A DNA stretch of 64,000 bases. It comes from Escherichia coli (GTDB taxonomy: Bacteria; Pseudomonadota; Gammaproteobacteria; Enterobacterales; Enterobacteriaceae). The stretch lies in assembly GCF_041248615.1 (NCBI RefSeq), contig NZ_CP158426.1, one strand, 5' to 3'. The stretch's first letter is position 1. Every line of letters starts with the position of its first letter. Under the pieces are notes generated by a model that saw only the letters and a program-made list of their open reading frames with translations, searched no databases and had not been told where the DNA came from. This document shows, piece after piece, positions 43,392 to 57,615 of this stretch. The position numbers were made by a program, and so were the translations under genes.

Positions 43392-44984
43392 ATGGCTCGA
43401 CTCTTTACCCCTTCAGAATCAAAGTATTACCTGATGGCGCTGGATGCAGGTACCGGAAGTATTCGGGCTGTGATATTCGACCTGGAAGGCAATCAAATAG
43501 CCGTGGGACAGGCGGAGTGGCGGCACCTGGCAGTACCGGACGTTCCTGGTTCTATGGAATTTGATCTCAACAAAAACTGGCAACTGGCGTGTGAGTGTAT
43601 GCGCCAGGCGCTGCACAACGCCGGCATAGCCCCGGAGTATATCGCTGCCGTTTCGGCATGTTCGATGCGTGAAGGCATTGTTTTATATAACAATGATGGA
43701 ACACCGATCTGGGCCTGCGCCAATGTGGATGCCAGAGCGGCGCGCGAAGTTAGCGAACTTAAAGAACTGCACAACAATACCTTTGAAAACGAAGTTTATC
43801 GCGCCACCGGACAAACGCTGGCTTTAAGCGCTATTCCCAGATTACTTTGGCTGGCGCACCATCGTTCTGATATCTACCGACAGGCGTCGACCATCACCAT
43901 GATCAGCGACTGGCTGGCCTATATGCTCAGCGGCGAACTGGCGGTGGATCCCTCTAACGCTGGCACCACGGGACTTCTTGATCTAACCACCCGTGACTGG
44001 AAACCTGCATTGCTGGATATGGCCGGACTGCGGGCCGATATTCTTTCTCCTGTCAAAGAAACCGGCACATTGCTGGGCGTGGTAAGTTCACAAGCGGCGG
44101 AACTCTGCGGTCTGAAGGCGGGCACTCCGGTGGTCGTTGGAGGAGGCGACGTGCAACTTGGTTGCCTTGGGTTAGGCGTTGTCCGTCCGGCACAAACCGC
44201 TGTTCTTGGCGGCACATTCTGGCAGCAAGTTGTAAACTTAGCCGCGCCGGTGACAGACCCAGAAATGAACGTGCGCGTTAATCCTCATGTTATTCCTGGC
44301 ATGGTACAAGCTGAATCTATAAGCTTTTTTACCGGACTCACCATGCGCTGGTTCCGCGATGCTTTCTGTGCCGAAGAAAAACTGATTGCCGAACGTTTAG
44401 GCATCGACACCTATACGCTGCTTGAAGAGATGGCAAGTCGGGTGCCGCCTGGGTCGTGGGGCGTAATGCCGATATTCTCCGACAGAATGCGCTTTAAAAC
44501 CTGGTATCACGCTGCGCCTTCCTTTATTAATTTGTCTATTGATCCGGATAAATGTAACAAAGCGACATTGTTCCGTGCGCTGGAAGAAAATGCGGCGATA
44601 GTATCAGCGTGTAACTTGCAGCAAATCGCTGATTTCTCGAATATTCATCCTTCATCGTTAGTCTTTGCAGGCGGAGGTTCAAAAGGGAAATTATGGAGTC
44701 AAATTCTCGCTGATGTCTCGGGATTACCCGTCAATATTCCGGTGGTCAAAGAAGCCACTGCATTAGGATGTGCCATTGCAGCTGGCGTCGGTGCCGGAAT
44801 TTTTTCATCAATGGCAGAAACCGGAGAACGCCTGGTTCGCTGGGAACGGACGCACACACCAGACCCGGAAAAGCATGAACTTTATCAGGATTCACGCGAT
44901 AAGTGGCAGGCAGTTTATCAGGATCAGCTGGGGCTGGTTGATCACGGGCTGACGACGTCGTTATGGAAAGCGCCTGGGTTATAG
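43392..44984 (+). CDS. lsrK: autoinducer-2 kinase LsrK (FGGY carbohydrate kinase family)
   Basis: 530-aa ORF recognised as LsrK. Confidence 0.9.
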
Positions 44985-44992
44985 TTTCATTG

Positions 44993-45028
44993 ACAGCCAC
45001 ATCATGATGACCGTGGCTGTTAGTTTTT
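44993..45028 (+). terminator. terminator-like hairpin after lsrK (ACAGCCAC...GTGGCTGT then TAGTTTTT)
   Basis: read directly; loop is long but contains a nested TCATGA palindrome. Confidence 0.4.
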
Positions 45029-45513
45029 GAGTATTGGTATTCTCATTTCCCTTCTTTTAGAGCTGGTTTGTTAAATGCCAGCTTGCAGATTCATCGTTCC
45101 ATCGCCAGTAATATATTCAAGGGGAAATTGCTATTTTTCTTAAAATATTAAGCATAACCCTTATTTTATAGCGAATATTCCTAAAGGCACAAATGAATGA
45201 AAAAGAGTTTTAATAGAGTTCTTTTTTAGCAATTAATGCTATTCTTTGTTAAATATGATGATGGTAATTTTCTTATTAAAAGAAACATTTTTCTTATTAA
45301 GCAACAATAACTCATGGTTCATTTTTAAATAAAATAAGAACTATGCAATTTTTAATTTATCAATTCGAAAGTATTAGCAAATTAGCCAAATTGACACCTT
45401 CCCACCTCCAACCAACACTCAATACAGACCTCTGACAATTTAATAAGTTTCATTTTTAATGTCTGACGACTCATCTCTTTCGTGGCTGTATTGTTTGTAT
45501 ATGGAGCGTTTAT

Positions 45514-48500
45514 ATGAATAGAATCTATCGCGTGATATGGAATTGCACCCTACAGGCATTTCAGGTCTGCTCGGAATTAACTCGCAGGGTAGGTAAAACA
45601 TCGACGGTTAATTTGCGTAAATCCTCTGGGCTGACAACGAAATTCAGTAGATTGACGCTGGGTGTTTTGCTGGCACTAAGCGGTTCAGCGTCTGGTGCGA
45701 GTCTGGAAGTTGATAATGATCAGATTACCAATATTGATACTGATGTTGCTTATGATGCCTACCTGGTTGGCTGGTATGGCACTGGAGTGCTTAATATTTT
45801 GGCTGGCGGTAATGCCTCCTTAACCACTATTACTACCAGCGTCATTGGTGGTAATGAGAACTCGAAGGGCACCGTTAATGTTTTGGGTGGCACCTGGCGA
45901 TTGTATGATAGCGGAAATAATGCAAGGCCTTTAAATGTGGGCCAATCCGGAACGGGGATGCTGAATATTAAACAGAAGGGGCACGTTGATGGAGGCTATT
46001 TAAGATTAGGTACTCAAGCTGTAGGCGTCGGGATGGTTAATGTTGAGGGAGAGGACTCGGTTCTGACGACGGAGTTATTCGAAATAGGTAGCTATGGCAC
46101 AGGTTCATTAAATATTACGGATAAGGCTTATGTCACGAGTTCAATCGTCGCCATTTTAGGCTATCAGACGGGCAGTAATGGCCAGGTTGTCGTTGAAAAG
46201 GGCGGTGAGTGGCTAATAAAAAATAACGATTCCTCAATTGAATTTCAAATTGGTAATCAAGGAACTGGGGAAGCGACTATTCGCGAGGGTGGGCTGATTA
46301 CGGCTGAAAATACGATTATCGGTGGCAATGCCACCGGTATCGGAACCCTGAATGTGCAGGATCAAGACTCTGTCATCACGGTACGCAGACTCTATAATGG
46401 ATATTTCGGTAATGGCACAGTCAATATTTCCAATAATGGACTGATTAATAATAAAGAATATTCATTGGTGGGCGTTCAGGACGGTTCCCACGGTGTCGTC
46501 AACGTGACTGATAAAGGGCATTGGAATTTCCTCGGAACGGGCGAAGCTTTCCGCTATATCTATATCGGTGATGCTGGCGATGGTGAACTTAATGTCTCGA
46601 GTGAAGGCAAAGTAGATTCGGGAATTATCACTGCGGGGATGAAAGAAACAGGCACAGGCAACATTACTGTTAAGGATAAGAACTCCGTTATCACTAATCT
46701 CGGAACTAATCTTGGTTATGACGGCCACGGCGAAATGAATATCAGTAATGAGGGGCTTGTTGTCAGCAACGGAGGAAGTTCACTCGGTTATGGAGAAACC
46801 GGCGTCGGGAAGGTTAGCATCACCACGGGGGGGATGTGGGAGGTCAATAAGAATGTCTATACCACCATTGGTGTTGCGGGCGTCGGAAACCTCAATATTA
46901 GCGATGGCGGTAAGTTTGTATCGCAAAATATTACTTTTTTGGGCGATAAAGCAAGCGGTATCGGCACACTGAACCTGATGGATGCGACATCATCGTTCGA
47001 TACTGTAGGTATCAATGTCGGTAATTTTGGTAGCGGCATCGTAAATGTCAGTAATGGTGCCACCCTTAATTCAACGGGCTATGGATTTATCGGAGGAAAT
47101 GCCTCCGGTAAGGGGATAGTTAATATTTCAACGGATAGTCTCTGGAATTTAAAAACGTCATCTACTAACGCCCAATTGCTACAGGTCGGTGTATTAGGCG
47201 CGGGTGAACTGAATATTACCACCGGAGGTATAGTTAAAGCGCGTGATACACAAATAGCTCTCAATGACAAAAGTAAGGGCGACGTGCGGGTGGATGGGCA
47301 GAACTCTCTTCTTGAAGCATTCAATATGAACGTAGGGACGACAGGCACGGGTACGTTAACCCTGACGAATAACGGTACGCTGAATGTCGAAGGTGGAGAG
47401 GTTTACTTAGGTGTTTTTGAGCCTGCTGTAGGAACGCTAAACATTGGTGCTGCTCACGGTGAGGCGGCGGTAGATGCCGGGTTTATCACCAACGCGACGA
47501 AAGTAGAGTTTGGCTCTGGCGAAGGTGTTTTTGTCTTTAATCATACTAATAACAGTGATGCCGGCTACCAGGTCTATATGCTGATTACAGGTGACGATAA
47601 AGACGGAAAAGTGATCCATGATGCAGGCCATACGGTGTTCAATGCAGGGAATACTTATAGCGGTAAAACGTTGGTCAATGACGGCCTCCTGACCATTGCG
47701 TCTCATACGGCAGATGGGGTAACGGGCATGGGTTCGAGTGAAGTAACCATTGCAAACCCCGGTACGCTCGACATTCTCGCATCAACGAACAGTGCAGGAG
47801 ATTACACGCTGACCAATGCGCTCAAAGGCGATGGCTTGATGCGAGTGCAGCTGTCATCCTCCGACAAAATGTTTGGCTTTACCCATGCAACAGGAACTGA
47901 ATTCGCCGGTGTTGCCCAACTGAAAGACAGTACCTTCGCACTGGAACGCGACAACACCGCTGCGCTTACTCACGCGATGCTGCAGTCTGACAGTGAAAAT
48001 ACCACATCGGTAAAAGTGGGAGAGCAATCCATTGGTGGACTAGCCATGAATGGCGGTACGCTCACTTTCGATACGGATATACCTGCTGCGACGCTTGCGG
48101 AGGGATATATCAGCGTCGATACACTGGTTGTCGGCGCGGGTGACTACACCTGGAAAGGCCGTAACTATCAGGTAAACGGGACGGGCGACGTGCTTATCGA
48201 CGTGCCTAAACCGTGGAATGATCCCATGGCGAATAACCCTCTGACGACGCTCAATTTGCTGGAACACGATGATAGCCATGTCGGCGTTCAACTGGTGAAG
48301 GCGCAAACGGTTATTGGGTCGGGTGGCTCATTAACGTTACGTGATTTACAGGGCGACGAGGTGGAAGCGGACAAAACGTTACATATTGCACAAAACGGGA
48401 CAGTGGTCGCCGAGGGTGATTATGGATTCCGCCTCACGACCGCACCTGGTGATGGTTTGTATGTTAACTATGGGCTGAAAGCGCTGAACATCCATGGTGG

Positions 48501-50934
48501 GCAAAAGCTGACGTTAGCCGAACATGGCGGAGCCTATGGCGCAACGGCCGATATGTCGGCAAAAATCGGTGGTGAAGGGGATCTGGCAATCAATACGGTG
48601 CGACAGGTTTCGCTTTCTAACGGTCAGAACGACTATCAGGGGGCAACCTACGTTCAGATGGGGACATTACGTACCGATGCGGATGGCGCGCTGGGCAATA
48701 CTCGGGAACTGAACATCAGCAACGCGGCCATCGTCGATCTTAATGGATCGGCCCAGACGGTAGAGACATTCACCGGGCTGATGGGTTCGACTGTTTTGTT
48801 TAAAGAGGGGTCGCTGACGGTAAATAAAGGTGGGATCAGTCAGGGTGAACTGACAGGTGGCGGAAACCTGAATGTTACAGGGGGAACGCTGGCTATCGAG
48901 GGGCTTAATGCACGCTACAATGCGTTAACCAGCGTTAGCCCAAATGCGGAAGTCAGCCTCGATAATACGCAGGGGTTAGGCAGAGGAAATATTGCCAATG
49001 ACGGTCTGTTAACGCTAAAAAACGTGACTGGCGAACTGCGCAATAGCATAAGCGGGAAGGGTATCGTGAGCGCAACCGCCAGGACAGATGTAGAGCTGGA
49101 TGGCGATAATAGCCGCTTTGTGGGGCAATTCAACATTGATACAGGCAGCGCGCTCAGCGTCAACGAGCAGAAAAACTTGGGTGATGCTTCCGTTATCAAT
49201 AATGGCCTGCTCACCATCTCCACTGAGCGTAGCTGGGCGATGACGCACAATATCAGCGGTAGCGGTGATGTGACAAAACTGGGTACCGGGATCCTGACTC
49301 TTAACAAAGATTCCGCGGCGTATCAGGGTACGACGGATATCGTGGGTGGTGAAATTGCTTTCGGTTCCGACTCTGCCATTAATATGGCAAGTCAGCACAT
49401 TAATATCCATAACAGCGGTGTGATGTCGGGAAATGTCACCACTGCAGGTGATGTGAACGTTATGCCAGGGGGGACACTGCGTGTCGCTAAAACCACTGTC
49501 GGCGGTAACCTGGAGAATGGTGGCACGGTTCAAATGAACAGCGAAGGGGGGAAACCGGGGAATGTACTGACCGTTAACGGTAACTATACCGGAAACAATG
49601 GCCTGATGACGTTCAACGCGACGCTGGGCGGCGATAATTCGCCCACCGATAAGATGAACGTGAAAGGCGATACCCAAGGGAATACTCGCGTTCGGGTTGA
49701 TAACATTGGCGGCGTCGGTGCACAAACGGTCAACGGTATTGAACTCATTGAGGTCGGCGGTAATTCTGCAGGTAACTTCGCGCTGACCACCGGAACTGTC
49801 GAAGCTGGGGCTTACGTCTACACGCTGGCTAAAGGGAAGGGGAATGACGAGAAAAACTGGTATCTGACCAGTAAATGGGACGGCGTAACGCCAGCGGATA
49901 CACCCGATCCCATCAATAATCCCCCTGTTGTGGATCCGGAAGGCCCATCAGTTTATCGCCCGGAGGCCGGAAGCTATATCAGCAACATTGCCGCAGCCAA
50001 CTCGCTGTTTAGCCATCGCTTACACGACCGTCTGGGTGAGCCGCAGTATACAGATTCACTGCATTCTCAGGGTTCGGCAAGCAGTATGTGGATGCGTCAT
50101 GTCGGAGGGCACGAACGTTCAAGGGCCGGTGACGGTCAGCTAAATACTCAGGCTAACCGCTATGTATTGCAGCTAGGCGGCGATTTGGCGCAGTGGAGTA
50201 GCATCGCGCAGGATCGCTGGCATCTCGGCGTCATGGCAGGCTATGCCAATCAGCACAGTAATACTCAGAGTAATCGTGTGGGTTATAAATCGGATGGGCG
50301 CATCAGCGGGTACAGCGCTGGGATTTACGCGACCTGGTATCAGAACGATGCGAATAAGACCGGCGCTTATGTTGACAGCTGGGCGCTGTATAACTGGTTT
50401 GATAACAGCGTCAGTTCCGATAACCGTTCTGCTGACGACTATGATTCTCGCGGTGTGACGGCCTCTGTTGAGGGTGGGTATACCTTTGAAGCGGGAACAT
50501 TTAGCGGCAGCGAAGGGACGCTGAATACCTGGTACGTCCAGCCACAGGCGCAAATCACCTGGATGGGTGTGAAAGATTCTGACCATACCCGGAAAGACGG
50601 AACACGCATTGAAACGGAAGGCGACGGAAACGTGCAAACGCGACTTGGGGTGAAAACCTACCTGAACAGTCATCACCAGCGTGACAATGGTAAACAGCGT
50701 GAGTTCCAGCCTTACATTGAAGCGAACTGGATCAACAACAGCAAAGTCTACGCCGTGAAGATGAATGGTCAAACCGTAAGCCGTGATGGTGCGCGTAATC
50801 TCGGTGAAGTACGTACCGGGGTTGAGGCGAAAGTAAATAACAACCTTAGCCTGTGGGGGAATGTCGGTGTGCAACTAGGTGATAAAGGCTATAGCGATAC
50901 TCAGGGCATGCTGGGTGTGAAATATAGCTGGTAA
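45514..50934 (+). CDS. type Va (AIDA-I-like) autotransporter adhesin, intact 1806-aa ORF
   Basis: extended signal peptide MNRIYRVIWNCTLQAFQV...; long passenger with repetitive G-T-G-x-L-N-I beta-helix units; C-terminal barrel ending YSW. Confidence 0.8.
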   Translation: MNRIYRVIWNCTLQAFQVCSELTRRVGKTSTVNLRKSSGLTTKFSRLTLGVLLALSGSASGASLEVDNDQITNIDTDVAYDAYLVGWYGTGVLNILAGGNASLTTITTSVIGGNENSKGTVNVLGGTWRLYDSGNNARPLNVGQSGTGMLNIKQKGHVDGGYLRLGTQAVGVGMVNVEGEDSVLTTELFEIGSYGTGSLNITDKAYVTSSIVAILGYQTGSNGQVVVEKGGEWLIKNNDSSIEFQIGNQGTGEATIREGGLITAENTIIGGNATGIGTLNVQDQDSVITVRRLYNGYFGNGTVNISNNGLINNKEYSLVGVQDGSHGVVNVTDKGHWNFLGTGEAFRYIYIGDAGDGELNVSSEGKVDSGIITAGMKETGTGNITVKDKNSVITNLGTNLGYDGHGEMNISNEGLVVSNGGSSLGYGETGVGKVSITTGGMWEVNKNVYTTIGVAGVGNLNISDGGKFVSQNITFLGDKASGIGTLNLMDATSSFDTVGINVGNFGSGIVNVSNGATLNSTGYGFIGGNASGKGIVNISTDSLWNLKTSSTNAQLLQVGVLGAGELNITTGGIVKARDTQIALNDKSKGDVRVDGQNSLLEAFNMNVGTTGTGTLTLTNNGTLNVEGGEVYLGVFEPAVGTLNIGAAHGEAAVDAGFITNATKVEFGSGEGVFVFNHTNNSDAGYQVYMLITGDDKDGKVIHDAGHTVFNAGNTYSGKTLVNDGLLTIASHTADGVTGMGSSEVTIANPGTLDILASTNSAGDYTLTNALKGDGLMRVQLSSSDKMFGFTHATGTEFAGVAQLKDSTFALERDNTAALTHAMLQSDSENTTSVKVGEQSIGGLAMNGGTLTFDTDIPAATLAEGYISVDTLVVGAGDYTWKGRNYQVNGTGDVLIDVPKPWNDPMANNPLTTLNLLEHDDSHVGVQLVKAQTVIGSGGSLTLRDLQGDEVEADKTLHIAQNGTVVAEGDYGFRLTTAPGDGLYVNYGLKALNIHGGQKLTLAEHGGAYGATADMSAKIGGEGDLAINTVRQVSLSNGQNDYQGATYVQMGTLRTDADGALGNTRELNISNAAIVDLNGSAQTVETFTGLMGSTVLFKEGSLTVNKGGISQGELTGGGNLNVTGGTLAIEGLNARYNALTSVSPNAEVSLDNTQGLGRGNIANDGLLTLKNVTGELRNSISGKGIVSATARTDVELDGDNSRFVGQFNIDTGSALSVNEQKNLGDASVINNGLLTISTERSWAMTHNISGSGDVTKLGTGILTLNKDSAAYQGTTDIVGGEIAFGSDSAINMASQHINIHNSGVMSGNVTTAGDVNVMPGGTLRVAKTTVGGNLENGGTVQMNSEGGKPGNVLTVNGNYTGNNGLMTFNATLGGDNSPTDKMNVKGDTQGNTRVRVDNIGGVGAQTVNGIELIEVGGNSAGNFALTTGTVEAGAYVYTLAKGKGNDEKNWYLTSKWDGVTPADTPDPINNPPVVDPEGPSVYRPEAGSYISNIAAANSLFSHRLHDRLGEPQYTDSLHSQGSASSMWMRHVGGHERSRAGDGQLNTQANRYVLQLGGDLAQWSSIAQDRWHLGVMAGYANQHSNTQSNRVGYKSDGRISGYSAGIYATWYQNDANKTGAYVDSWALYNWFDNSVSSDNRSADDYDSRGVTASVEGGYTFEAGTFSGSEGTLNTWYVQPQAQITWMGVKDSDHTRKDGTRIETEGDGNVQTRLGVKTYLNSHHQRDNGKQREFQPYIEANWINNSKVYAVKMNGQTVSRDGARNLGEVRTGVEAKVNNNLSLWGNVGVQLGDKGYSDTQGMLGVKYSW

Positions 50935-50941
50935 ACCGTAT

Positions 50942-50970
50942 AAGCCGCATGTCGAAGATGCATGCGGCTT
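50942..50970. terminator. perfect 10-bp hairpin (AAGCCGCATG...CATGCGGCTT) downstream of the autotransporter
   Basis: read directly; no T-tract, so may be a stabiliser rather than a terminator. Confidence 0.35.
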
Positions 50971-51009
50971 AATATTGCCGACTTCAAACGACTTTTAAAT
51001 CCTCCTTTT

Positions 51010-51123
51010 TATCCGCGATCGCGGATATCGCAGCGTTTATCCCGTAGAGCGGATAAGATGTGTTTCCAGATTGACTTTATCCTCACTAAAGGATAAAACT
51101 GATAATATCCCCTTGAGCGGATA
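51010..51123. promoter_or_regulatory. four HipB operators, TATCC-N8-GGATA (about 51010..51027, 51038..51055, 51078..51095, 51106..51123)
   Basis: all four palindromes read directly upstream of hipB; matches the established hipBA operator architecture. Confidence 0.8.
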
Positions 51124-51144
51124 AATTTGCTGTGGACGTATGAC

Positions 51145-51411
51145 ATGATGAGCTTTCAGAAGATCTATAGCCCAACGCAATTAGCGAATGCAATGAAACT
51201 GGTTCGTCAGCAAAATGGCTGGACGCAGAGCGGGCTGGCGAAAAAAATCGGCATTAAGCAGGCGACAATTTCCAATTTCGAAAACAACCCTGACAATACC
51301 ACGCTGACGACATTTTTTAAGATTTTACAGTCGCTTGAACTCTCAATGACGCTATGCGACACGAAAAATGCCTCGCCAGAATCAACAGAACAGCAAGATC
51401 TGGAGTGGTAA
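51145..51411 (+). CDS. hipB: antitoxin HipB (Cro/C1-type HTH)
   Basis: ORF track 51127..51411; ATG at 51145 gives the 88-aa MMSFQKIYSPTQ start. Confidence 0.9.
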   Translation: MMSFQKIYSPTQLANAMKLVRQQNGWTQSGLAKKIGIKQATISNFENNPDNTTLTTFFKILQSLELSMTLCDTKNASPESTEQQDLEW

Positions 51412-52733
51412 TGCCTAAACTTGTCACTTGGATGAACAACCAGCGGGTAGGCGAGTTAACGAAGTTAGCCAATGGCGCGCACACCTTTAAGTATGCACCG
51501 GAGTGGTTAGCCAACCGTTATGCCAGACCGTTATCACTTTCGCTGCCATTGCAGAGGGGGAATATCACCTCTGATGCTGTATTTAACTTCTTCGATAACC
51601 TGCTACCCGATAGCCCGATTGTACGTGACCGGATCGTTAAACGTTATCATGCTAAATCCAGACAACCGTTTGATTTATTGTCAGAAATAGGGCGAGATAG
51701 CGTTGGTGCCGTAACGTTATTACCCGAAAATGAAACCATAACGCGCCCGATAATGGCATGGGAACAGCTCACTGAAGCCAGGCTTGAAGAAGTATTAACG
51801 GCTTATAAAGCAGATATCCCTCTGGGCATGATTAGAGAAGAAAATGACTTTCGCATCTCGGTTGCTGGCGCGCAGGAGAAGACAGCGCTGCTCAGAATAG
51901 GCAATGACTGGTGCATTCCGAAAGGAATAACGCCGACGACGCACATCATTAAATTACCGATTGGCGAAATCAGGCAGCCCAATGCGACGCTCGATCTCAG
52001 CCAAAGCGTTGATAATGAGTATTACTGTCTGCTGCTGGCGAAAGAACTTGGGTTGAATGTGCCGGACGCAGAAATCATTAAAGCGGGAAATGTGCGCGCG
52101 TTAGCGGTCGAACGTTTTGACAGGCGTTGGAATGCTGAGCGAACGGTTTTACTTCGCTTGCCACAGGAGGATATGTGTCAGACATTCGGTTTACCTTCAT
52201 CGGTGAAATATGAATCAGATGGAGGCCCAGGCATCGCGCGGATCATGGCTTTTTTGATGGGGTCCAGCGAGGCGCTGAAAGATCGCTATGATTTTATGAA
52301 GTTTCAGGTGTTCCAGTGGTTGATTGGCGCAACGGATGGCCATGCAAAAAACTTCTCCGTATTTATTCAGGCTGGCGGCAGTTATCGACTCACGCCATTT
52401 TACGACATCATTTCAGCATTTCCGGTATTGGGTGGCGCAGGAATACACATCAGCGATCTCAAACTGGCAATGGGGCTTAACGCATCCAAAGGCAAAAAAA
52501 CGGCAATCGATAAAATTTATCCGCGACATTTTCTGGCGACAGCAAAGGTGCTGAAATTTCCGGAAGTGCAGATGCATGAAATCCTGAGTGACTTTGCCAG
52601 AATGATTCCGGCAGCACTGGATAACGTGAAGACTTCATTACCGACAGATTTTCCGGAGAACGTGGTGACGGCAGTTGAAACCAATGTGTTGAGGTTGCAC
52701 GGCCGGTTAAGCCGAGAATACGGTATTAAGTAA
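51411..52733 (+). CDS. hipA: serine/threonine kinase toxin HipA
   Basis: ORF track 51354..52733; ATG at 51411 overlaps the hipB stop by 1 nt (TAATG); 440 aa; residue 22 is Gly. Confidence 0.9.
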   Translation: MPKLVTWMNNQRVGELTKLANGAHTFKYAPEWLANRYARPLSLSLPLQRGNITSDAVFNFFDNLLPDSPIVRDRIVKRYHAKSRQPFDLLSEIGRDSVGAVTLLPENETITRPIMAWEQLTEARLEEVLTAYKADIPLGMIREENDFRISVAGAQEKTALLRIGNDWCIPKGITPTTHIIKLPIGEIRQPNATLDLSQSVDNEYYCLLLAKELGLNVPDAEIIKAGNVRALAVERFDRRWNAERTVLLRLPQEDMCQTFGLPSSVKYESDGGPGIARIMAFLMGSSEALKDRYDFMKFQVFQWLIGATDGHAKNFSVFIQAGGSYRLTPFYDIISAFPVLGGAGIHISDLKLAMGLNASKGKKTAIDKIYPRHFLATAKVLKFPEVQMHEILSDFARMIPAALDNVKTSLPTDFPENVVTAVETNVLRLHGRLSREYGIK

Positions 52734-53131: not shown

Positions 53132-54031
53132 TTATCGCCCCGTAGTGGATATCAGAAAATCAATCAGGGCCTTCACTCTTTTCGTTTTACCCGCGTTTTT
53201 GGGGTAATAGAGATACACTGGCGGGTAGGTTTTCCAGTATCTCTCCATCACCGGAATAAAGCGCTCCCTGTCCGGCTGTAACTGCCAGACAGGCTCAAAC
53301 AAGCGCCCAATTCCCAGCCCGTTACGGATCCCGTCTGCCATAACGTCAATATCGTTGCTGATTAACTGCCCCGGCATCTCAACGGTCAACTGCTCACCGC
53401 GATCGTTCAGGAGCAGCGGAAGGATGCGGTTGTTGGTGATAAAACGGTAACCAATCAGCTGGTGATGACAGAGATCTGCCGGCACTTCAGGCGTTCCATG
53501 TCGGGAGAGATACGCTGAGGATGCATATAATCCTTCACGAAACGGTTTCATTAACGGTCGGGCCACCACCCCTCCCTCAAGAATATCGCCAAAACGGATC
53601 CCCAGATCAAAACGCTCTTTGATGATATTCACGGTACCGTCGTAGACCGAAATTTCTAACTGTATACCCGGATATTGCTGACAGAATTCTGCCATCGCAG
53701 GCTTAAGAATTAACAGGTAGGCAAAACGCGAGAGCGTAATTCGCACCATCCCAGAGGGCTCCTGATGCTGGTCGCGAATGCTTTCAAGTGAGTTTTCCAG
53801 CGACTCCACCGCCGCAGCGGTCTGTTCCAGCAATAATTGACCGGTTTCCGTCAGCTCTATACGGCGGGTCGTACGCACAAAAAGCGGATGGCCGATATAC
53901 TCTTCCAGCAGCTTTAGTGCATTGCTGACGGAGGGAGGCGTAATTTCCAGTTTCCTTGCGGCTGCCGAAATATTGCCCTCCCGCGCAATGCTCTGGAAGA
54001 TGCGAATCTGGTTATAAAGAGCGTTATTCAT
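53132..54031 (-). CDS. LysR-family transcriptional regulator (island-encoded)
   Basis: 299-aa ORF; N-terminal HTH (ISAAARKLEITPPSVSNALKLLEE); divergent from the enzyme run. Confidence 0.8.
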   Translation of the reverse strand: MNNALYNQIRIFQSIAREGNISAAARKLEITPPSVSNALKLLEEYIGHPLFVRTTRRIELTETGQLLLEQTAAAVESLENSLESIRDQHQEPSGMVRITLSRFAYLLILKPAMAEFCQQYPGIQLEISVYDGTVNIIKERFDLGIRFGDILEGGVVARPLMKPFREGLYASSAYLSRHGTPEVPADLCHHQLIGYRFITNNRILPLLLNDRGEQLTVEMPGQLISNDIDVMADGIRNGLGIGRLFEPVWQLQPDRERFIPVMERYWKTYPPVYLYYPKNAGKTKRVKALIDFLISTTGR

Positions 54032-54166
54032 AATGTTTTCCTAAGCAATTCTCGCCTGATTATTAAGTACAGTCTAAAAATGCTTAAGTCAATGACCCTC
54101 TAATCTTCCTGAAATACGCCTCTTATACTTTAGTCTCTTTCTACTACGACCTGAGTTCAGGAGACT

Positions 54167-54478
54167 ATGATGCGAATTTTATGTCTGGATATCCCTGCCC
54201 CTGGAGCATCGCTGGAGAAATATGCTCCGCACCTCAACGCTGAAGCGCTGCACGCCTGGGGATTGTATAAATCAGGCTTCATCCGCGACATCTACTTCCG
54301 TCAGGACAGACCTGGCGTCGCTATTTTTCTTGAATGTGACTCTGTCGATGAAGCGATGAACGTTATGGCCGAATTCCCGTTGGCAAAAGCAGGCTTACTA
54401 AGCTTCGAGTGTATACCGCTTGGCTCCTTTATTAACTGGGAAAATCTCTTCGCCGATGAATTTAAAAATAAAGAGTGA
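54167..54478 (+). CDS. small alpha+beta barrel protein, muconolactone isomerase/Dabb-like (tentative)
   Basis: 103-aa ORF with AGGAG RBS; family assignment from pattern resemblance only. Confidence 0.45.
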   Translation: MMRILCLDIPAPGASLEKYAPHLNAEALHAWGLYKSGFIRDIYFRQDRPGVAIFLECDSVDEAMNVMAEFPLAKAGLLSFECIPLGSFINWENLFADEFKNKE

Positions 54479-54486
54479 GGACCGAT

Positions 54487-55179
54487 ATGAAACCTGCATA
54501 TAAACCAGTGCTATGTGTCGTTTCCAGCCATCCGATTAAAGGCGCATCCGGTGTACCAACCGGTTTTTTCCTGGCCGAGCTGACTCATCCGCTGAAAGTA
54601 CTGGAAGATGCCGGAATAAAAACAACAATAGCCAGTATTCGCGGGGGGCAGCCACCGGTGGATGGATTTGACCTCAGCGACCCTGTTAACGCCTGGTACT
54701 GGAACGAAACCGATTTTCAGCAGCGCCTGGCAACAACACCTGCGTTATCCGAGCTGAAAGGTGCCGATTACAGCGCAGTTTTCTTTGCAGGTGGTCATGG
54801 GACCATGTGGGATTTCCGTGATAATCAGGATGCCCAGCGTATTATCCGCGAAGTGTATGAAAGTGATGGGATTGTCTCAGCCGTCTGCCACGGGCCTGCG
54901 GCATTGGTTGACGCAAAACTCAGTAGCGGCGAATACCTGATAAAAGGGAAAAATGTGGCGGCCTTTACCAACAAGGAAGAGGAAGAAGTTCACACAACAG
55001 ATGTGGTTCCCTTCCTGCTTGAAACCGCACTTCGCGAGCATGGTGCGCTTTATCATGAAGCTCCAAACTGGTCTGAAAACGTGGTTACCGACGATCGCCT
55101 TATCACGGGGCAGAAGAATCCCGCTTCAGCACATGGGGTTGGTGTGGCGCTGTTAAATGCACTCCGCCGGACAGCTTAA
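54487..55179 (+). CDS. DJ-1/PfpI-family protein (class I glutamine amidotransferase-like fold)
   Basis: ATG at 54487 after GAGG; nucleophile-elbow motif AVCHGPAAL; about 230 aa. Confidence 0.75.
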   Translation: MKPAYKPVLCVVSSHPIKGASGVPTGFFLAELTHPLKVLEDAGIKTTIASIRGGQPPVDGFDLSDPVNAWYWNETDFQQRLATTPALSELKGADYSAVFFAGGHGTMWDFRDNQDAQRIIREVYESDGIVSAVCHGPAALVDAKLSSGEYLIKGKNVAAFTNKEEEEVHTTDVVPFLLETALREHGALYHEAPNWSENVVTDDRLITGQKNPASAHGVGVALLNALRRTA

Positions 55180-55252
55180 TTAATTCATCGTTACTCACCT
55201 TACTTGGCCGGTTTAAGTCAGCCACGATCCGGCCTTTTTTCAGGAGCTGAAT

Positions 55253-56200
55253 ATGAAAACACTACCTCCAGTCGCACTAGGTACATGGTCCTGGGGCACA
55301 GGCTTTGCCGGCGGCGACACCGTCTTTGGTAATCATCTTTCTGATACTCAGATGGCAGAAGTGTTCACTGCGGCCATGAGTAAGGGCCTCAATCTCTGGG
55401 ATACCGCAGCAGTATATGATATGGGGAGTTCCGAGACTGCGCTGGGAGCATTAGTCCGTCAGTTTCCCCGCGAGAACATAATTTTATCCACCAAATTCAC
55501 GCCGCAGATTGCGGACAAGCAGTCTGCGCAGCCTGTCAGCGATATGCTTGAGGCCAGCCTTGGGCGCCTGGGCGTGGACGCGATTGATATCTACTGGATC
55601 CATAATCCCCTCGACGTCGAAAAATGGACACCAGGACTGATCCCACTTTTACAAAGCGGTAAGGTAAAACGCGTAGGTGTTTCCAACCACAATCTGGCAC
55701 AAATCAGACGCGCCAATGAAATCCTTAACGCTTCCGGTTATTCCCTCAGTGCAGTACAAAATCACTACAGCCTGCTCTATCGCGCTTCTGAAGAGGCCGG
55801 GATCCTTGATTATTGCCGACAAAATAACATCACGTTCTTTGCTTACATGGTCCTGGAGCAAGGCGCGCTCAGTGGTCGTTATGATTCAAATCATCCCATG
55901 CCTGCCGGGAGTGGCCGGGCCGAAAGTTATAACGCAGTACTGCCGCAGATAGAAAGACTAACCGCCGCCATGAAAAAAATGGGAGCCGAAAGGAATGCCA
56001 GCGTGGCACAGATAGCCATCGCATGGGCTATTGCGAAAGGTACCCTTCCCCTCGTTGGTGCGACTAAAGTCCATCACGTTCTGGACGCCGCCTGCGCTTC
56101 AGACATCCAGTTACGCGATGAGGAAATCATTCTGCTGGAACAACTCGCCGCAGAGACCAGAGTGGATACACGAGGCGCCTGGGAAAAACCGATGGTGTAA
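55253..56200 (+). CDS. aldo-keto reductase
   Basis: 315-aa ORF; AKR hallmarks (LWDTAAVYD, IYWIHNP). Confidence 0.8.
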   Translation: MKTLPPVALGTWSWGTGFAGGDTVFGNHLSDTQMAEVFTAAMSKGLNLWDTAAVYDMGSSETALGALVRQFPRENIILSTKFTPQIADKQSAQPVSDMLEASLGRLGVDAIDIYWIHNPLDVEKWTPGLIPLLQSGKVKRVGVSNHNLAQIRRANEILNASGYSLSAVQNHYSLLYRASEEAGILDYCRQNNITFFAYMVLEQGALSGRYDSNHPMPAGSGRAESYNAVLPQIERLTAAMKKMGAERNASVAQIAIAWAIAKGTLPLVGATKVHHVLDAACASDIQLRDEEIILLEQLAAETRVDTRGAWEKPMV

Positions 56201-56302
56201 AGCCCGTCCGGAACAGACTGTCATGAATGACACACACGAACGGGCTGTTCCGGGTGATTCTAATCTGTATCACTTTTACTGCTTTGTATGAATGGTGAGA
56301 AT

Positions 56303-56890
56303 ATGAAAATCATTTGCCTCGAAGAAAATTATCTCGACAGCGAGTTAGGGCGAGCGTGTATGCCTGTTGCGCTTGAGCAGGCACCTTTCCTTGGCGACTG
56401 GGGGAAAACCGTCGCTGATGGTCATAATCCTGACCGACTCCCCAGCGCAGAGGTCAACTCCAGGCTTTCTATGTTTGCCTGGGGCTGGCATCACGAAGCG
56501 GGGATCCATTTGTTGCGGCTGATGTTATCGGGCGCATTTGATAAATATCCCAACCTGCAGGTAATCAGTGGCCACTGGGGGGAGATGTTACCCTTCTGGC
56601 TCCAGCGTCTTGATGACAGACTACCACTGGCTGCAACGGGTCTGTCACGCACGCTAACGAGAACCTTCAAGGAACACGTTTACGTTACCCCGTCAGGTAT
56701 GCTGACACTGCCGCACTTCAAGTTTATCTACGAGTTAATGGGGGCAGAAAGGATCCTATTCTCCGTCGATTATCCCTATCAGACCCTGGACGGTGTAAAA
56801 ACCTTTATAGACAGTCTGCCCGTCAACAAGGCTGAAAAAGAGGCCATCGCATTTCGCAATGCAGAACGTTTACTGGGCATCACGGCGTAG
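56303..56890 (+). CDS. amidohydrolase-2 family protein, apparently N-terminally truncated (possible pseudogene)
   Basis: only ~195 aa; has C-terminal-half motifs (SGHWGE, FSVDYPY) but lacks the N-terminal HxH metal-binding region. Confidence 0.5.
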   Translation: MKIICLEENYLDSELGRACMPVALEQAPFLGDWGKTVADGHNPDRLPSAEVNSRLSMFAWGWHHEAGIHLLRLMLSGAFDKYPNLQVISGHWGEMLPFWLQRLDDRLPLAATGLSRTLTRTFKEHVYVTPSGMLTLPHFKFIYELMGAERILFSVDYPYQTLDGVKTFIDSLPVNKAEKEAIAFRNAERLLGITA

Positions 56891-57040
56891 TTCACGGGTT
56901 CGTGATGACCGGTACAATGAGAACAGTTGACCATTATTAGTTTTTGTCTAAAAGTGAATAAGTCTTTACTGCTCTAAAAAAAATAATGGTGTCACTCTAT
57001 ACTGGGTTAAACATTCACCAAATATATTTAACTCATTGAA

Positions 57041-57613
57041 ATGAAAAATATCCTTATTGTTTCAGGCCATCCTGAGCTTACCCATTCCGTCGCCAATGCC
57101 ACGATCCTTGATGAAGTGGAGACCGCCCTTCCTGATGTTGAGATTCGTCGTCTGGACAGGCTCTATCCGGATGGCAAATTCAACATCGCGGCGGAGCAGG
57201 AAAGCCTGCTCAGGGCCGATGTGATTGTCTGGCAGTTCCCTTTTTCCTGGTATGGGCTGCCAGGATTAATGAAAAAATGGCTGGACGAGGTCTTTGTTCA
57301 CGGCTTCGCGCATGGCTCAACGGCGAAACTGGGCGGTAAAAAGCTGATCCTCTCCTTTACAACGGGAGCGCCAGAGGAGCTCTATACCGTCGACAGTTTC
57401 TTTGGCCATACCATTGAAGAGTATCTAATTCGGTTCGAGACCACAGCAAAACTGTGCAATCTTGAGCTGCTGGAGCCGGTTTATACCTGCGGTATCAGCT
57501 ATGCCGATCGGGATGCCGACAAACTCGCGCAGCAAAAAACGCTTGCCCGGGAACACGCTTCAAGGCTTGTCGATCTGCTCAATTCCGTCGTGAATAATCC
57601 AGAGGGAGAATAA
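57041..57613 (+). CDS. flavodoxin-like fold NAD(P)H dehydrogenase (quinone), KefF/MdaB-like
   Basis: 190-aa ORF; N-terminal ILIVSGHP motif. Confidence 0.7.
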   Translation: MKNILIVSGHPELTHSVANATILDEVETALPDVEIRRLDRLYPDGKFNIAAEQESLLRADVIVWQFPFSWYGLPGLMKKWLDEVFVHGFAHGSTAKLGGKKLILSFTTGAPEELYTVDSFFGHTIEEYLIRFETTAKLCNLELLEPVYTCGISYADRDADKLAQQKTLAREHASRLVDLLNSVVNNPEGE

Positions 57614-57615
57614 CA

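Follow-up and report, generated by a model that had tools for sequence, protein, structure and literature searches.

An intact allele of the yneO/ECSE_1600 autotransporter gene between lsrK and hipB in Escherichia coli

A described counterpart of the autotransporter reported here is ECSE_1600 of the commensal E. coli strain SE11. The SE11 genome paper (Oshima et al. 2008, PMC2608844) describes it as a protein of 1806 aa; SE11 and HS have it intact, MG1655, E24377A and O157 Sakai have truncated forms, and three B2 strains lack it. The intact 1806-aa form is already known, having been published in 2008 and its family named by NCBI; likewise, the pseudogene status in K-12 and O157 and the absence from B2 strains are already published, so they carry little weight as a discovery. 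No functional study came up in literature searches under yneO, ydeK, ydeU or ECSE_1600, or by locus, which yielded genome-scale tables only; the gene is unmentioned in a 2022 phylogenetic review of characterised autotransporters. No experimental report of its expression, surface display or adhesion was found in the literature searched.

The window analysed here is a stretch of 64,000 nucleotides of E. coli (contig NZ_CP158426.1). It contains one uninterrupted ORF on the plus strand at 45514..50934, which starts with ATG and encodes 1806 aa plus a stop. The translation has no internal stops; the chance of 1806 open codons in DNA of about 50% GC is (61/64)^1806, or about 1e-38. The protein matches the profile NF011422 (ECSE_1600 family autotransporter) along its whole length (residues 1-1806 against profile positions 1-1806 of 1806) with 4129.2 bits, above the curated cut-off of 2335 bits. 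The SE11 protein belongs to the same family and has the same length, with no difference of substance; the two can be regarded as alleles of one gene, a comparison made through NF011422 and the published length. A 100%-identical copy of the region lies in NZ_CP128875.1 and encodes WP_001327996.1.

The gene is flanked by lsrR/lsrK upstream and hipB/hipA downstream. An earlier note on this DNA had claimed a single intact ORF of 1806 aa between lsrK and hipB; the ORF listing, the stop-free translation and the flanking genes bear this out. The order lsrK, autotransporter gene, hipB, hipA is shared by the window, K-12 and all sampled genomes except O157-type strains, in which hipB is missing and hipA is truncated. 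Linkage to hipBA is retained in two divergent relatives (L018 and L019), and the position upstream of hipBA identifies the genes as orthologues by synteny. In these two relatives a Pmp3 gene lies between the autotransporter gene and hipB; no remnant of it was found in the window.

In MG1655 the same locus, between hipB and lsrK, is occupied by the pseudogene yneO (b4696, 5422 bp), formerly annotated as ydeK and ydeU. It is 97.3% identical to the window gene at the nucleotide level, with one indel, and the two are equal in length bar one base. Compared with the window gene, its reading frame is broken at one point only: a poly-G tract at gene nt ~3955 has slipped by +1 G, which leads to a stop at codon 1326 and divides the copy into the old ydeK and ydeU ORFs. 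At this site (49468..49473) the window has a G6 tract followed by A, whereas MG1655 has G8 and intact sister alleles have G7. What K-12 carries as the pseudogene yneO (ydeK/ydeU) is thus present in the window as an intact allele. The earlier note was right that the K-12 locus is pseudogenised but not that only disrupted fragments are left there: the MG1655 copy is full length and differs in frame by a single extra G.

The protein is a classical type Va (AIDA-I-type) autotransporter. Its domains are, in order, an ESPR, a right-handed beta-solenoid of two modules and about 1270 aa, an autochaperone, a proline-rich and helical linker, and an AIDA-I-like barrel. The extended signal peptide (45514..45699) consists of the ESPR (PF13018, aa 1-47, E=8.3e-15) and a hydrophobic core, and thus provides an N-terminal Sec signal; a putative cleavage site near aa 62 (SGSASG/ASLEV) was set by eye from the translation. 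The passenger carries eight T5SS/PEP-CTERM-associated repeats (TIGR04393, 161 bits) plus PATR repeats, all of them degenerate and detectable at the protein level only: Tandem Repeats Finder reported none, and a DNA repeat search returned only one 16-nt pair. In the N-terminal passenger module (aa ~89-660, 45778..47493), motif scanning, TIGR04393 and the AF2 model agree on a series of degenerate rungs, about 22 in number and 24-26 aa long, each of which opens with GxGxLN(I/V); here AF2 predicts a beta-solenoid with pLDDT mostly above 90 in blocks of ten residues. The second module (aa ~661-1331, 47494..49506), delimited by homologue search, PATR repeats and the AF2 model, is common to many large autotransporters of other bacteria. 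A search of protein representatives gave 3045 relatives at E<=1e-3, most of which match query residues ~650-1200, and some giant relatives match in up to 23 stretches. Over aa 56-1255 the AF2 model has a mean pLDDT of 90.4 and is all-beta, with short strand triplets.

The passenger is followed by an autochaperone domain (aa 1332-1438, 49507..49827), recognised as AC_1 (PF18883, aa 1332-1438, E=3.7e-26) and overlapping a Pertactin domain (PF03212, aa 1335-1452, E=1.6e-10); among known structures, those of the IcsA autochaperone (3ML3 and 5KE1) match it at E ~1e-17. Beta-helical passenger and autochaperone (AC_1, Pertactin, AF2, Foldseek) both precede the linker, as is typical of type Va proteins. 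The linker (aa 1439-1524, 49828..50085) comprises a proline-rich spacer and an alpha-helical part (PADTPDPINNPPVVDPEGPSVYRPEAGSY...RLHDRLGE), assigned from the translation and the alignment with 4MEE. The C-terminal outer-membrane beta-barrel translocator (50086..50931), supported by PF03797 (aa 1525-1784, E=4.6e-42), TIGR01414 (409 bits) and 4MEE, lies on the same polypeptide and ends in the aromatic motif KYSW. The earlier note had also predicted an extended signal peptide, a repetitive beta-helical passenger and a translocator barrel, and each is recovered: the ESPR at aa 1-47, the TIGR04393 and PATR repeats with the AF2 solenoid, and PF03797 with a 4MEE alignment that runs to the last residue. 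The legacy label 'Lipoprotein YdeK' does not hold; no cysteine occurs beyond residue 19, so the protein lacks a lipobox.

Among named autotransporters, AIDA-I is homologous in the autochaperone, linker and barrel (4MEE, E=5.7e-89 over aa 1345-1806), whereas its passenger is unrelated to that of the window protein at the sequence level. The AIDA-I model NF033176 matches only aa 1298-1805, that is, the C-terminal ~500 aa, with 354 bits against a cut-off of 1200. Pfam scans report no AIDA 19-aa repeat (PF16168) in the window protein, and no Aah-type heptosyltransferase or glycosyltransferase gene is annotated next to it in the 100%-identical record, where the neighbours are lsrK and hipB. With a score below the cut-off and neither 19-aa repeats nor an adjacent heptosyltransferase, the gene is rejected as an AIDA-I orthologue. 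For the translocator, the named family that comes nearest is Salmonella MisL (462 bits over aa 1480-1806; cut-off 1297); ShdA (218 bits; cut-off 2249) and YfaL/EhaC (199 bits, C-terminus only; cut-off 1459) score lower. All three score below their cut-offs, MisL and ShdA far below, with matches confined to the C-terminal translocator, and are rejected as equivalogs; the passengers of MisL and ShdA, which are ECM-binding colonisation adhesins, do not match that of the window protein. A family profile scan gave no sequence-level match of the passenger to any characterised adhesin passenger.

At the level of predicted fold, the best Foldseek matches of the passenger are Ag43 (4KH3, 7KOH, 7KO9, 7KOB) and TibA (4Q1Q), each with probability 1.0, E-values from 1e-6 to 6e-4 and sequence identity of 10-14%. 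TM-scores reach only 0.15-0.18 on the query and 0.30-0.56 on the target, as is expected when a solenoid of 1200 residues is compared with shorter ones. The window passenger is two to three times longer than those of Ag43 and TibA, which are self-associating autotransporters, and has rungs of about 25 aa rather than 19 aa. The Eha proteins of O157:H7 and the Upa proteins of CFT073 are likewise AIDA-I-type autotransporters in the broad sense; functional members of both groups have been cloned, from O157:H7 and from CFT073/B2 strains. The window gene is distinct from all of these; the O157:H7 copy of it is a frameshifted pseudogene, and in CFT073 and other B2 strains the locus does not contain the gene.

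The spacer between lsrK and the autotransporter gene (44985..45513) is AT-rich (GC ~0.38-0.40, from the composition profile and the sequence) and is presumed to be a regulatory region and H-NS target. In K-12 an H-NS site is marked in the yneO-lsrK spacer (Shimada 2014, PMC3946193), and both H-NS and RpoS holoenzyme sites have been reported for this spacer. H-NS, acting through this AT-rich region, probably keeps the gene silent in laboratory culture. A sigma-70 promoter-like element, CTGACA-17-TTTAAT, lies at 45432..45460 (plus strand) and matches the reported constitutive RpoD promoter of K-12 yneO (PMC3946193). Direct motif search finds this element exactly once in the window, where chance would give 0.01 matches; the K-12 promoter motif is thus conserved upstream of the window gene, where it is a putative promoter. 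A scan with promoter and terminator consensus sequences gave counts not above shuffle expectation and no call in the upstream spacer. A Shine-Dalgarno sequence (GGAG, 45503..45506), read from the sequence, precedes the ATG by 7 nt.

The gene is common in E. coli genomes yet often lost. Of 30 genomes taken at even spacing from 5344 matching records of complete E. coli genomes, about 10 have an intact copy, 14 a disrupted copy and 6 no copy. Being disrupted or absent in about two thirds of the sampled complete genomes, it is dispensable. Lesions in the sample include nonsense mutations at codons 17 and 880, slips that add one G at three tracts, loss of one G, an 8-bp duplication, deletions, and insertions of IS2 and IS5. 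The intact state is nevertheless common in natural strains and not exceptional; two 90%-identity clusters of 1806-aa proteins comprise 18,868 and 5,726 sequences. Purifying selection acts on intact alleles: dN/dS is 0.12-0.15 in comparison with six intact E. coli alleles and 0.11-0.125 in comparison with two orthologues of 85-86% identity (dS 0.63-0.71), which are identical in length, with no indels.

From what is known of type Va secretion, the protein would be exported through Sec and its barrel inserted by BAM. The passenger would then be threaded outward C-terminus first while the autochaperone domain nucleates its folding, to give a long cysteine-free solenoid on the cell surface, rich in Gly, Thr and Asn. 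By analogy with the folds of Ag43 and TibA and with the translocators of MisL, AIDA-I and ShdA, the passenger may act in adhesion and/or cell-cell aggregation and biofilm formation, and the likeliest role is that of an H-NS-silenced, surface-anchored adhesin or aggregation factor. That the intact copy is a functional adhesin is plausible, with indirect support from the purifying selection and the fold similarity to Ag43 and TibA. Taken as a whole, an intact type Va allele of yneO/ECSE_1600 with an adhesion or aggregation role and probable H-NS silencing is a likely explanation of the locus. It would be different if the gene were cryptic and decaying, that is, silenced by H-NS, making no contribution to fitness in this lineage, and intact merely for want of a lesion. 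The independent lesions in about 14 of the 30 sampled genomes, the absence of the gene from 6, the reported H-NS site upstream in K-12 and the many singleton in-frame deletion variants all fit such decay. However, dN/dS is about 0.12 in every domain, whereas neutral decay would give a value near 1, and a length of 1806 codons is kept exactly relative to an Escherichia-like orthologue at dS ~0.7, a distance over which neutrality would accumulate indels; cryptic decay is thus unlikely. It is very doubtful that the passenger has an activity other than adhesion, such as that of an enzyme, a cytotoxin, or a phage or colicin receptor. A possible sub-domain at aa ~835-1055 of the model would agree with it, but there is no catalytic Pfam or NCBIfam domain, no match to PADLOC defence models and no serine-protease domain as in SPATEs, and the fold matches are to plain solenoid adhesins.

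Poly-G tracts raise the question of phase variation, in which slipped-strand mispairing would switch the gene reversibly ON and OFF and the pseudogenes of K-12 and other strains would be OFF phases. The window gene has a frameshift-prone G7 homopolymer at 46827..46833 (gene nt 1314-1320), which is G8 in strain 2020N21-110, where the gene is annotated as frameshifted. At 49344..49351, a site with a G8 tract in most E. coli alleles, the window reads GGGTGGTG; three sampled genomes (L013, L017 and L023) have G9 frameshift variants. In keeping with switching, three of the nine distinct lesion types in full-length copies are +1 G slips at G7-G8 tracts (nt 1314, 3831 and 3955), these slips account for 6 of the 13 aligned disrupted full-length copies, and the tract at nt 3831 has been struck on at least two allele backgrounds. 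However, although tract length does change, the tracts are not conserved across alleles: two are interrupted by synonymous changes in the window allele, and G runs of 7 or more are missing from the divergent orthologues L018 and L019. Nor are long G runs clearly above the expectation from codon shuffles (P=0.05-0.6), given that 16% of the protein is Gly and that 53-58 codons are GGG. The K-12 lineage stably retains its frameshift, and some G9 calls may be homopolymer errors of long-read assemblies. In mismatch-repair-proficient E. coli, G7-G8 runs behave as mutational hot spots, not as fast switches. Phase variation based on the poly-G tracts is therefore largely rejected and considered highly improbable. 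In a related but distinctly unlikely scenario, the protein is a widely conserved gut-colonisation or aggregation adhesin of commensals which has been lost repeatedly in pathogenic and laboratory lineages (O157:H7, B2, K-12) by antagonistic selection, with the G7-G8 tracts as quasi-reversible switches; loss would then reflect selection against a surface antigen, such as that exerted by phages or the immune system, and the tracts would give population-level ON/OFF heterogeneity. The autotransporter ranks among the largest of E. coli; together with purifying selection where the gene is intact, set beside many independent inactivations, this makes it a reasonable candidate for studies of adhesion, biofilm formation and colonisation, and its gene is a useful marker of lineage-specific loss of surface proteins.

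Some further features of the region can be mentioned. In the AF2 model, aa ~835-1055 have unusually long strands together with short helices. A permissive Rfam scan of 44000-52000 gave no match. ORFs of up to 236 aa on the opposite strand within the gene are taken as by-products of the long ORF. A stem-loop at 50941..50971 (plus strand), found by folding, starts 7 nt past the stop codon; it has a 12-bp stem and a 7-nt loop and is followed by UUAAUAUU. Its folding energy is -22.8 kcal/mol (z=-4.6), and none of 200 shuffles folds as well. The consensus terminator scan misses this hairpin because the U tract is imperfect; it is probably a terminator or an mRNA-end hairpin.

The autotransporter gene occupies 45514..50934 (+) and encodes 1806 aa from an ATG start. 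A Shine-Dalgarno sequence (GGAG) lies 7 nt 5' of the ATG, and 7 nt past the stop codon is a hairpin with a 12-bp stem (-22.8 kcal/mol, z=-4.6). The ORF listing agrees with the single ORF described in the earlier note, and the translation has no internal stops. Its neighbours are lsrR and lsrK on the upstream side and hipB and hipA on the downstream side, which places the gene between lsrK and hipB as claimed. The protein aligns with the NCBIfam model NF011422 (ECSE_1600 family autotransporter) over the full length of both and scores 4129 bits (cut-off 2335); PGAP gives the gene the same name in matching genomes. Megablast with 45000-51500 finds a match in 5341 of 5426 complete E. coli genomes, and one record (TUM14771, NZ_CP128875.1) is 100% identical across the searched 6.5 kb. 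An earlier genome paper lists ECSE_1600 as an intact autotransporter of 1806 aa that carries a pertactin motif: SE11 and HS have it, MG1655, E24377A and O157 Sakai have truncated versions, and CFT073, UTI89 and 536 lack it (Oshima et al. 2008, PMC2608844). A literature search under all names of the gene found no functional study, and the gene goes unmentioned in a 2022 review that classifies autotransporters of characterised function. The window gene is already known and ordinary: it is the intact form of an E. coli autotransporter that has been described before, is widely distributed and is functionally uncharacterised.

The protein has a complete type Va domain set. An ESPR at aa 1-47 (Pfam, E=8e-15) bears out the extended signal peptide noted earlier. 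Pfam also identifies PATR repeats in the passenger and, in a scan of the fragment from aa 901 onward, AC_1 (aa 1332-1438), Pertactin (aa 1335-1452) and the Autotransporter beta-domain (aa 1525-1784); the last of these, with the barrel-domain model TIGR01414 from NCBIfam, corresponds to the proposed C-terminal translocator. NCBIfam further detects eight T5SS/PEP-CTERM-associated repeats. The C-terminal 460 aa align to 4MEE, the solved structure of the AIDA-I transport unit, at E=5.7e-89; the alignment spans the autochaperone, helical linker and barrel up to the terminal KYSW, and IcsA autochaperone structures likewise match. The passenger (aa 63-1330) contains 16% Gly, 10% Thr and 9% Asn, and from aa 89 to ~660 it consists of ~22 degenerate rungs of 24-26 aa starting with GxGxLN(I/V). 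DNA-level repeats were not found in the gene. No cysteine occurs beyond residue 19, in conflict with the former 'lipoprotein YdeK' annotation.

The AlphaFold2 prediction for aa 56-1255, based on 36 aligned relatives, is a confident solenoid (mean pLDDT 90.4, pTM 0.71). It is composed nearly throughout of short beta strands in triplets; together with the rungs, this upholds the description of a repetitive beta-helical passenger. The top Foldseek matches in the PDB are Ag43 passengers (4KH3, 7KOH, 7KO9, 7KOB) and TibA (4Q1Q), followed by IcsA, pertactin, Hap and Hbp with non-significant E-values. At aa ~835-1055 (~48016-48678) the model's strands are unusually long (11-13 residues) and accompanied by short helices, and a conserved motif there, YGFRLTTAPGDGLYVNYGL, resembles the autochaperone motif AYVYTL...NWYLTS. 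These features suggest a capping element inside the passenger, between two of its modules.

With aa 56-1255 of the passenger as query, an exhaustive HMMER search yields 3045 proteins at E<=1e-3, of which 330 reach E<=1e-30; most matches lie at query residues 650-1200 (aa ~705-1255). Fragments aside, these relatives are 28-51% identical; they include giant proteins of up to 7700 aa, some of which match the passenger in up to 23 separate stretches. Five of the closest relatives were compared with the NCBIfam models; apart from generic translocator models, each matched the ECSE_1600 model alone, with a score under its cut-off. No named, characterised family therefore shares the passenger. Similarity to MisL, AIDA-I, ShdA and YfaL/EhaC is confined to the C-terminal translocator, with scores far under the cut-offs. 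Identity with any Eha or Upa protein is ruled out because the strains that those proteins come from either carry the gene as a pseudogene (O157:H7) or lack it (CFT073-type B2 strains). Family members in the database include fusions (P0059, P0073, P0072), two with an FGGY (lsrK-type) kinase domain at the N-terminus and one with HipA domains; presumably, deletions fused adjacent genes or frameshifts were bridged during annotation.

MG1655 has the 5422-bp pseudogene yneO (b4696) at this position; compared with the window gene, it shows 144 substitutions and a single added base. This base is a G within a homopolymer that reads G8 in K-12, G7 in intact sister alleles and G6 then A in the window. 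Since this is the sole indel, the K-12 gene is full length with a single frameshift. Its first stop is at codon 1326, hence the old ydeK and ydeU ORFs. The earlier note was correct that K-12 has a pseudogene here, but not that it retains only disrupted fragments; apart from this correction, its observation is confirmed and its interpretation supported.

Distribution was assessed in 30 rows taken at even steps down a ranking of 5344 records; 22 were judged by annotation and sequence, and eight by coverage and listed annotated features. The gene is intact in ten rows (H1, H2, H5-H9, H16-H18), disrupted in 14 and missing in six, proportions which are rough given n=30, the over-representation of K-12 derivatives among complete genomes and the chance that some homopolymer indels are long-read assembly errors. 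The intact form is common, and the protein database agrees: two 90%-identity clusters of 1806-aa proteins comprise 18,868 and 5,726 sequences. It also contains many rare variants of 1440-1714 aa with in-frame deletions. In SE15 (L021, phylogroup B2; locus 6087-7419), the one gene-absent strain inspected, tam directly adjoins hipB; the autotransporter gene and the entire lsr (AI-2 uptake) operon are gone as a single ~14 kb block.

Lesions in the disrupted rows (L numbers are loci from other genomes) include nonsense mutations at codon 17 (L005) and codon 880 (L009), a tandemly duplicated 8-bp segment at nt 3983 among O157-type strains (L002, L025), and loss of one G at nt 4656 (L024). Further disrupted rows have an IS2 insertion, an IS5 insertion, a 5' truncation or a barrel-only remnant. 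One G is gained in the nt 3955 tract in a K-12 derivative, in the G8 tract at nt 3831 in L013, L017 and L023, and in the G7 tract at nt 1314 in L022, although some homopolymer indels, such as those of L013, may be long-read assembly errors. Slips of this kind at G7-G8 tracts make up three of the nine distinct lesion types among full-length copies and explain six of the 13 aligned full-length disrupted copies, which could suggest a contingency locus with phase variation through poly-G tracts. However, the tracts lack conservation: two of them read GGGTGGTG and G6-A in the window allele, and the divergent orthologues L018 and L019 lack any G run of at least 7. Long G runs are not clearly in excess of codon-shuffle expectation (P=0.05-0.6), and there are 53-58 GGG codons per protein. 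They are most plausibly mutational hot spots of a glycine-rich gene. In L013 (strain PK5), where the gene is annotated as frameshifted, the extra G at nt 3830 is accompanied by loss of a G in another tract 205 nt downstream (nt 4035); this is either a compensated frameshift or two homopolymer sequencing errors.

The gene is under purifying selection. Against six intact E. coli alleles, dS is 0.07-0.10 and dN/dS 0.12-0.15; against the two 85-86%-identical orthologues (L018, 'Enterobacteriaceae bacterium G50', and L019), dS is 0.63-0.71 and dN/dS 0.11-0.125. By domain, dN/dS is <0.2 everywhere but in the signal peptide. Both orthologues have exactly 1806 codons and no indels. The low dN/dS and exact length therefore indicate that the gene is kept by selection where intact. 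In both of these divergent, Escherichia-like genomes hipBA again lies downstream, and a xanthine-dehydrogenase-like cluster is found upstream in place of the lsr operon. They also carry a gene for a 52-aa Pmp3-family membrane protein between the autotransporter and hipB (L018 11625-11783, L019 11621-11779); no remnant of it was found in the window.

In K-12, genomic SELEX studies have reported a sigma-70 promoter (CTGACA-17-TTTAAT) and an H-NS site in the yneO-lsrK spacer (PMC3946193), as well as an RpoS-holoenzyme peak in this spacer. The promoter motif is conserved in the window, where it occurs once (45432-45460) in a spacer of 38-40% GC. By analogy, the gene may be silenced by H-NS in the laboratory. 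From established type Va biology, Sec export would be slowed by the ESPR, the barrel would be inserted by BAM, and the passenger would be translocated C-to-N with folding nucleated by the autochaperone; the long solenoid would then be displayed on the cell surface. The passenger may act in adhesion and/or self-aggregation and in biofilm formation, as do Ag43, TibA, MisL and ShdA.

The AT-rich upstream spacer also holds an 18-nt imperfect inverted repeat (45152-45169 / 45329-45346; 83% complementary, 159 nt between arms), which may have arisen by chance. The autotransporter gene-hipB spacer contains four HipB operator sites (TATCC-N8-GGATA) within 51010-51123, with starts at 51010, 51038, 51078 and 51106. 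In the window strain, the interval from hipA to the fimA-like (yde) fimbrial operon (approximately 53132-61000) contains ~8 kb of genes encoding a LysR regulator, a type 1 glutamine amidotransferase, aldo/keto reductases, amidohydrolase fragments, a quinol monooxygenase and a carboxymuconolactone decarboxylase; the K-12 counterpart of this interval contains only the yneL pseudogene.
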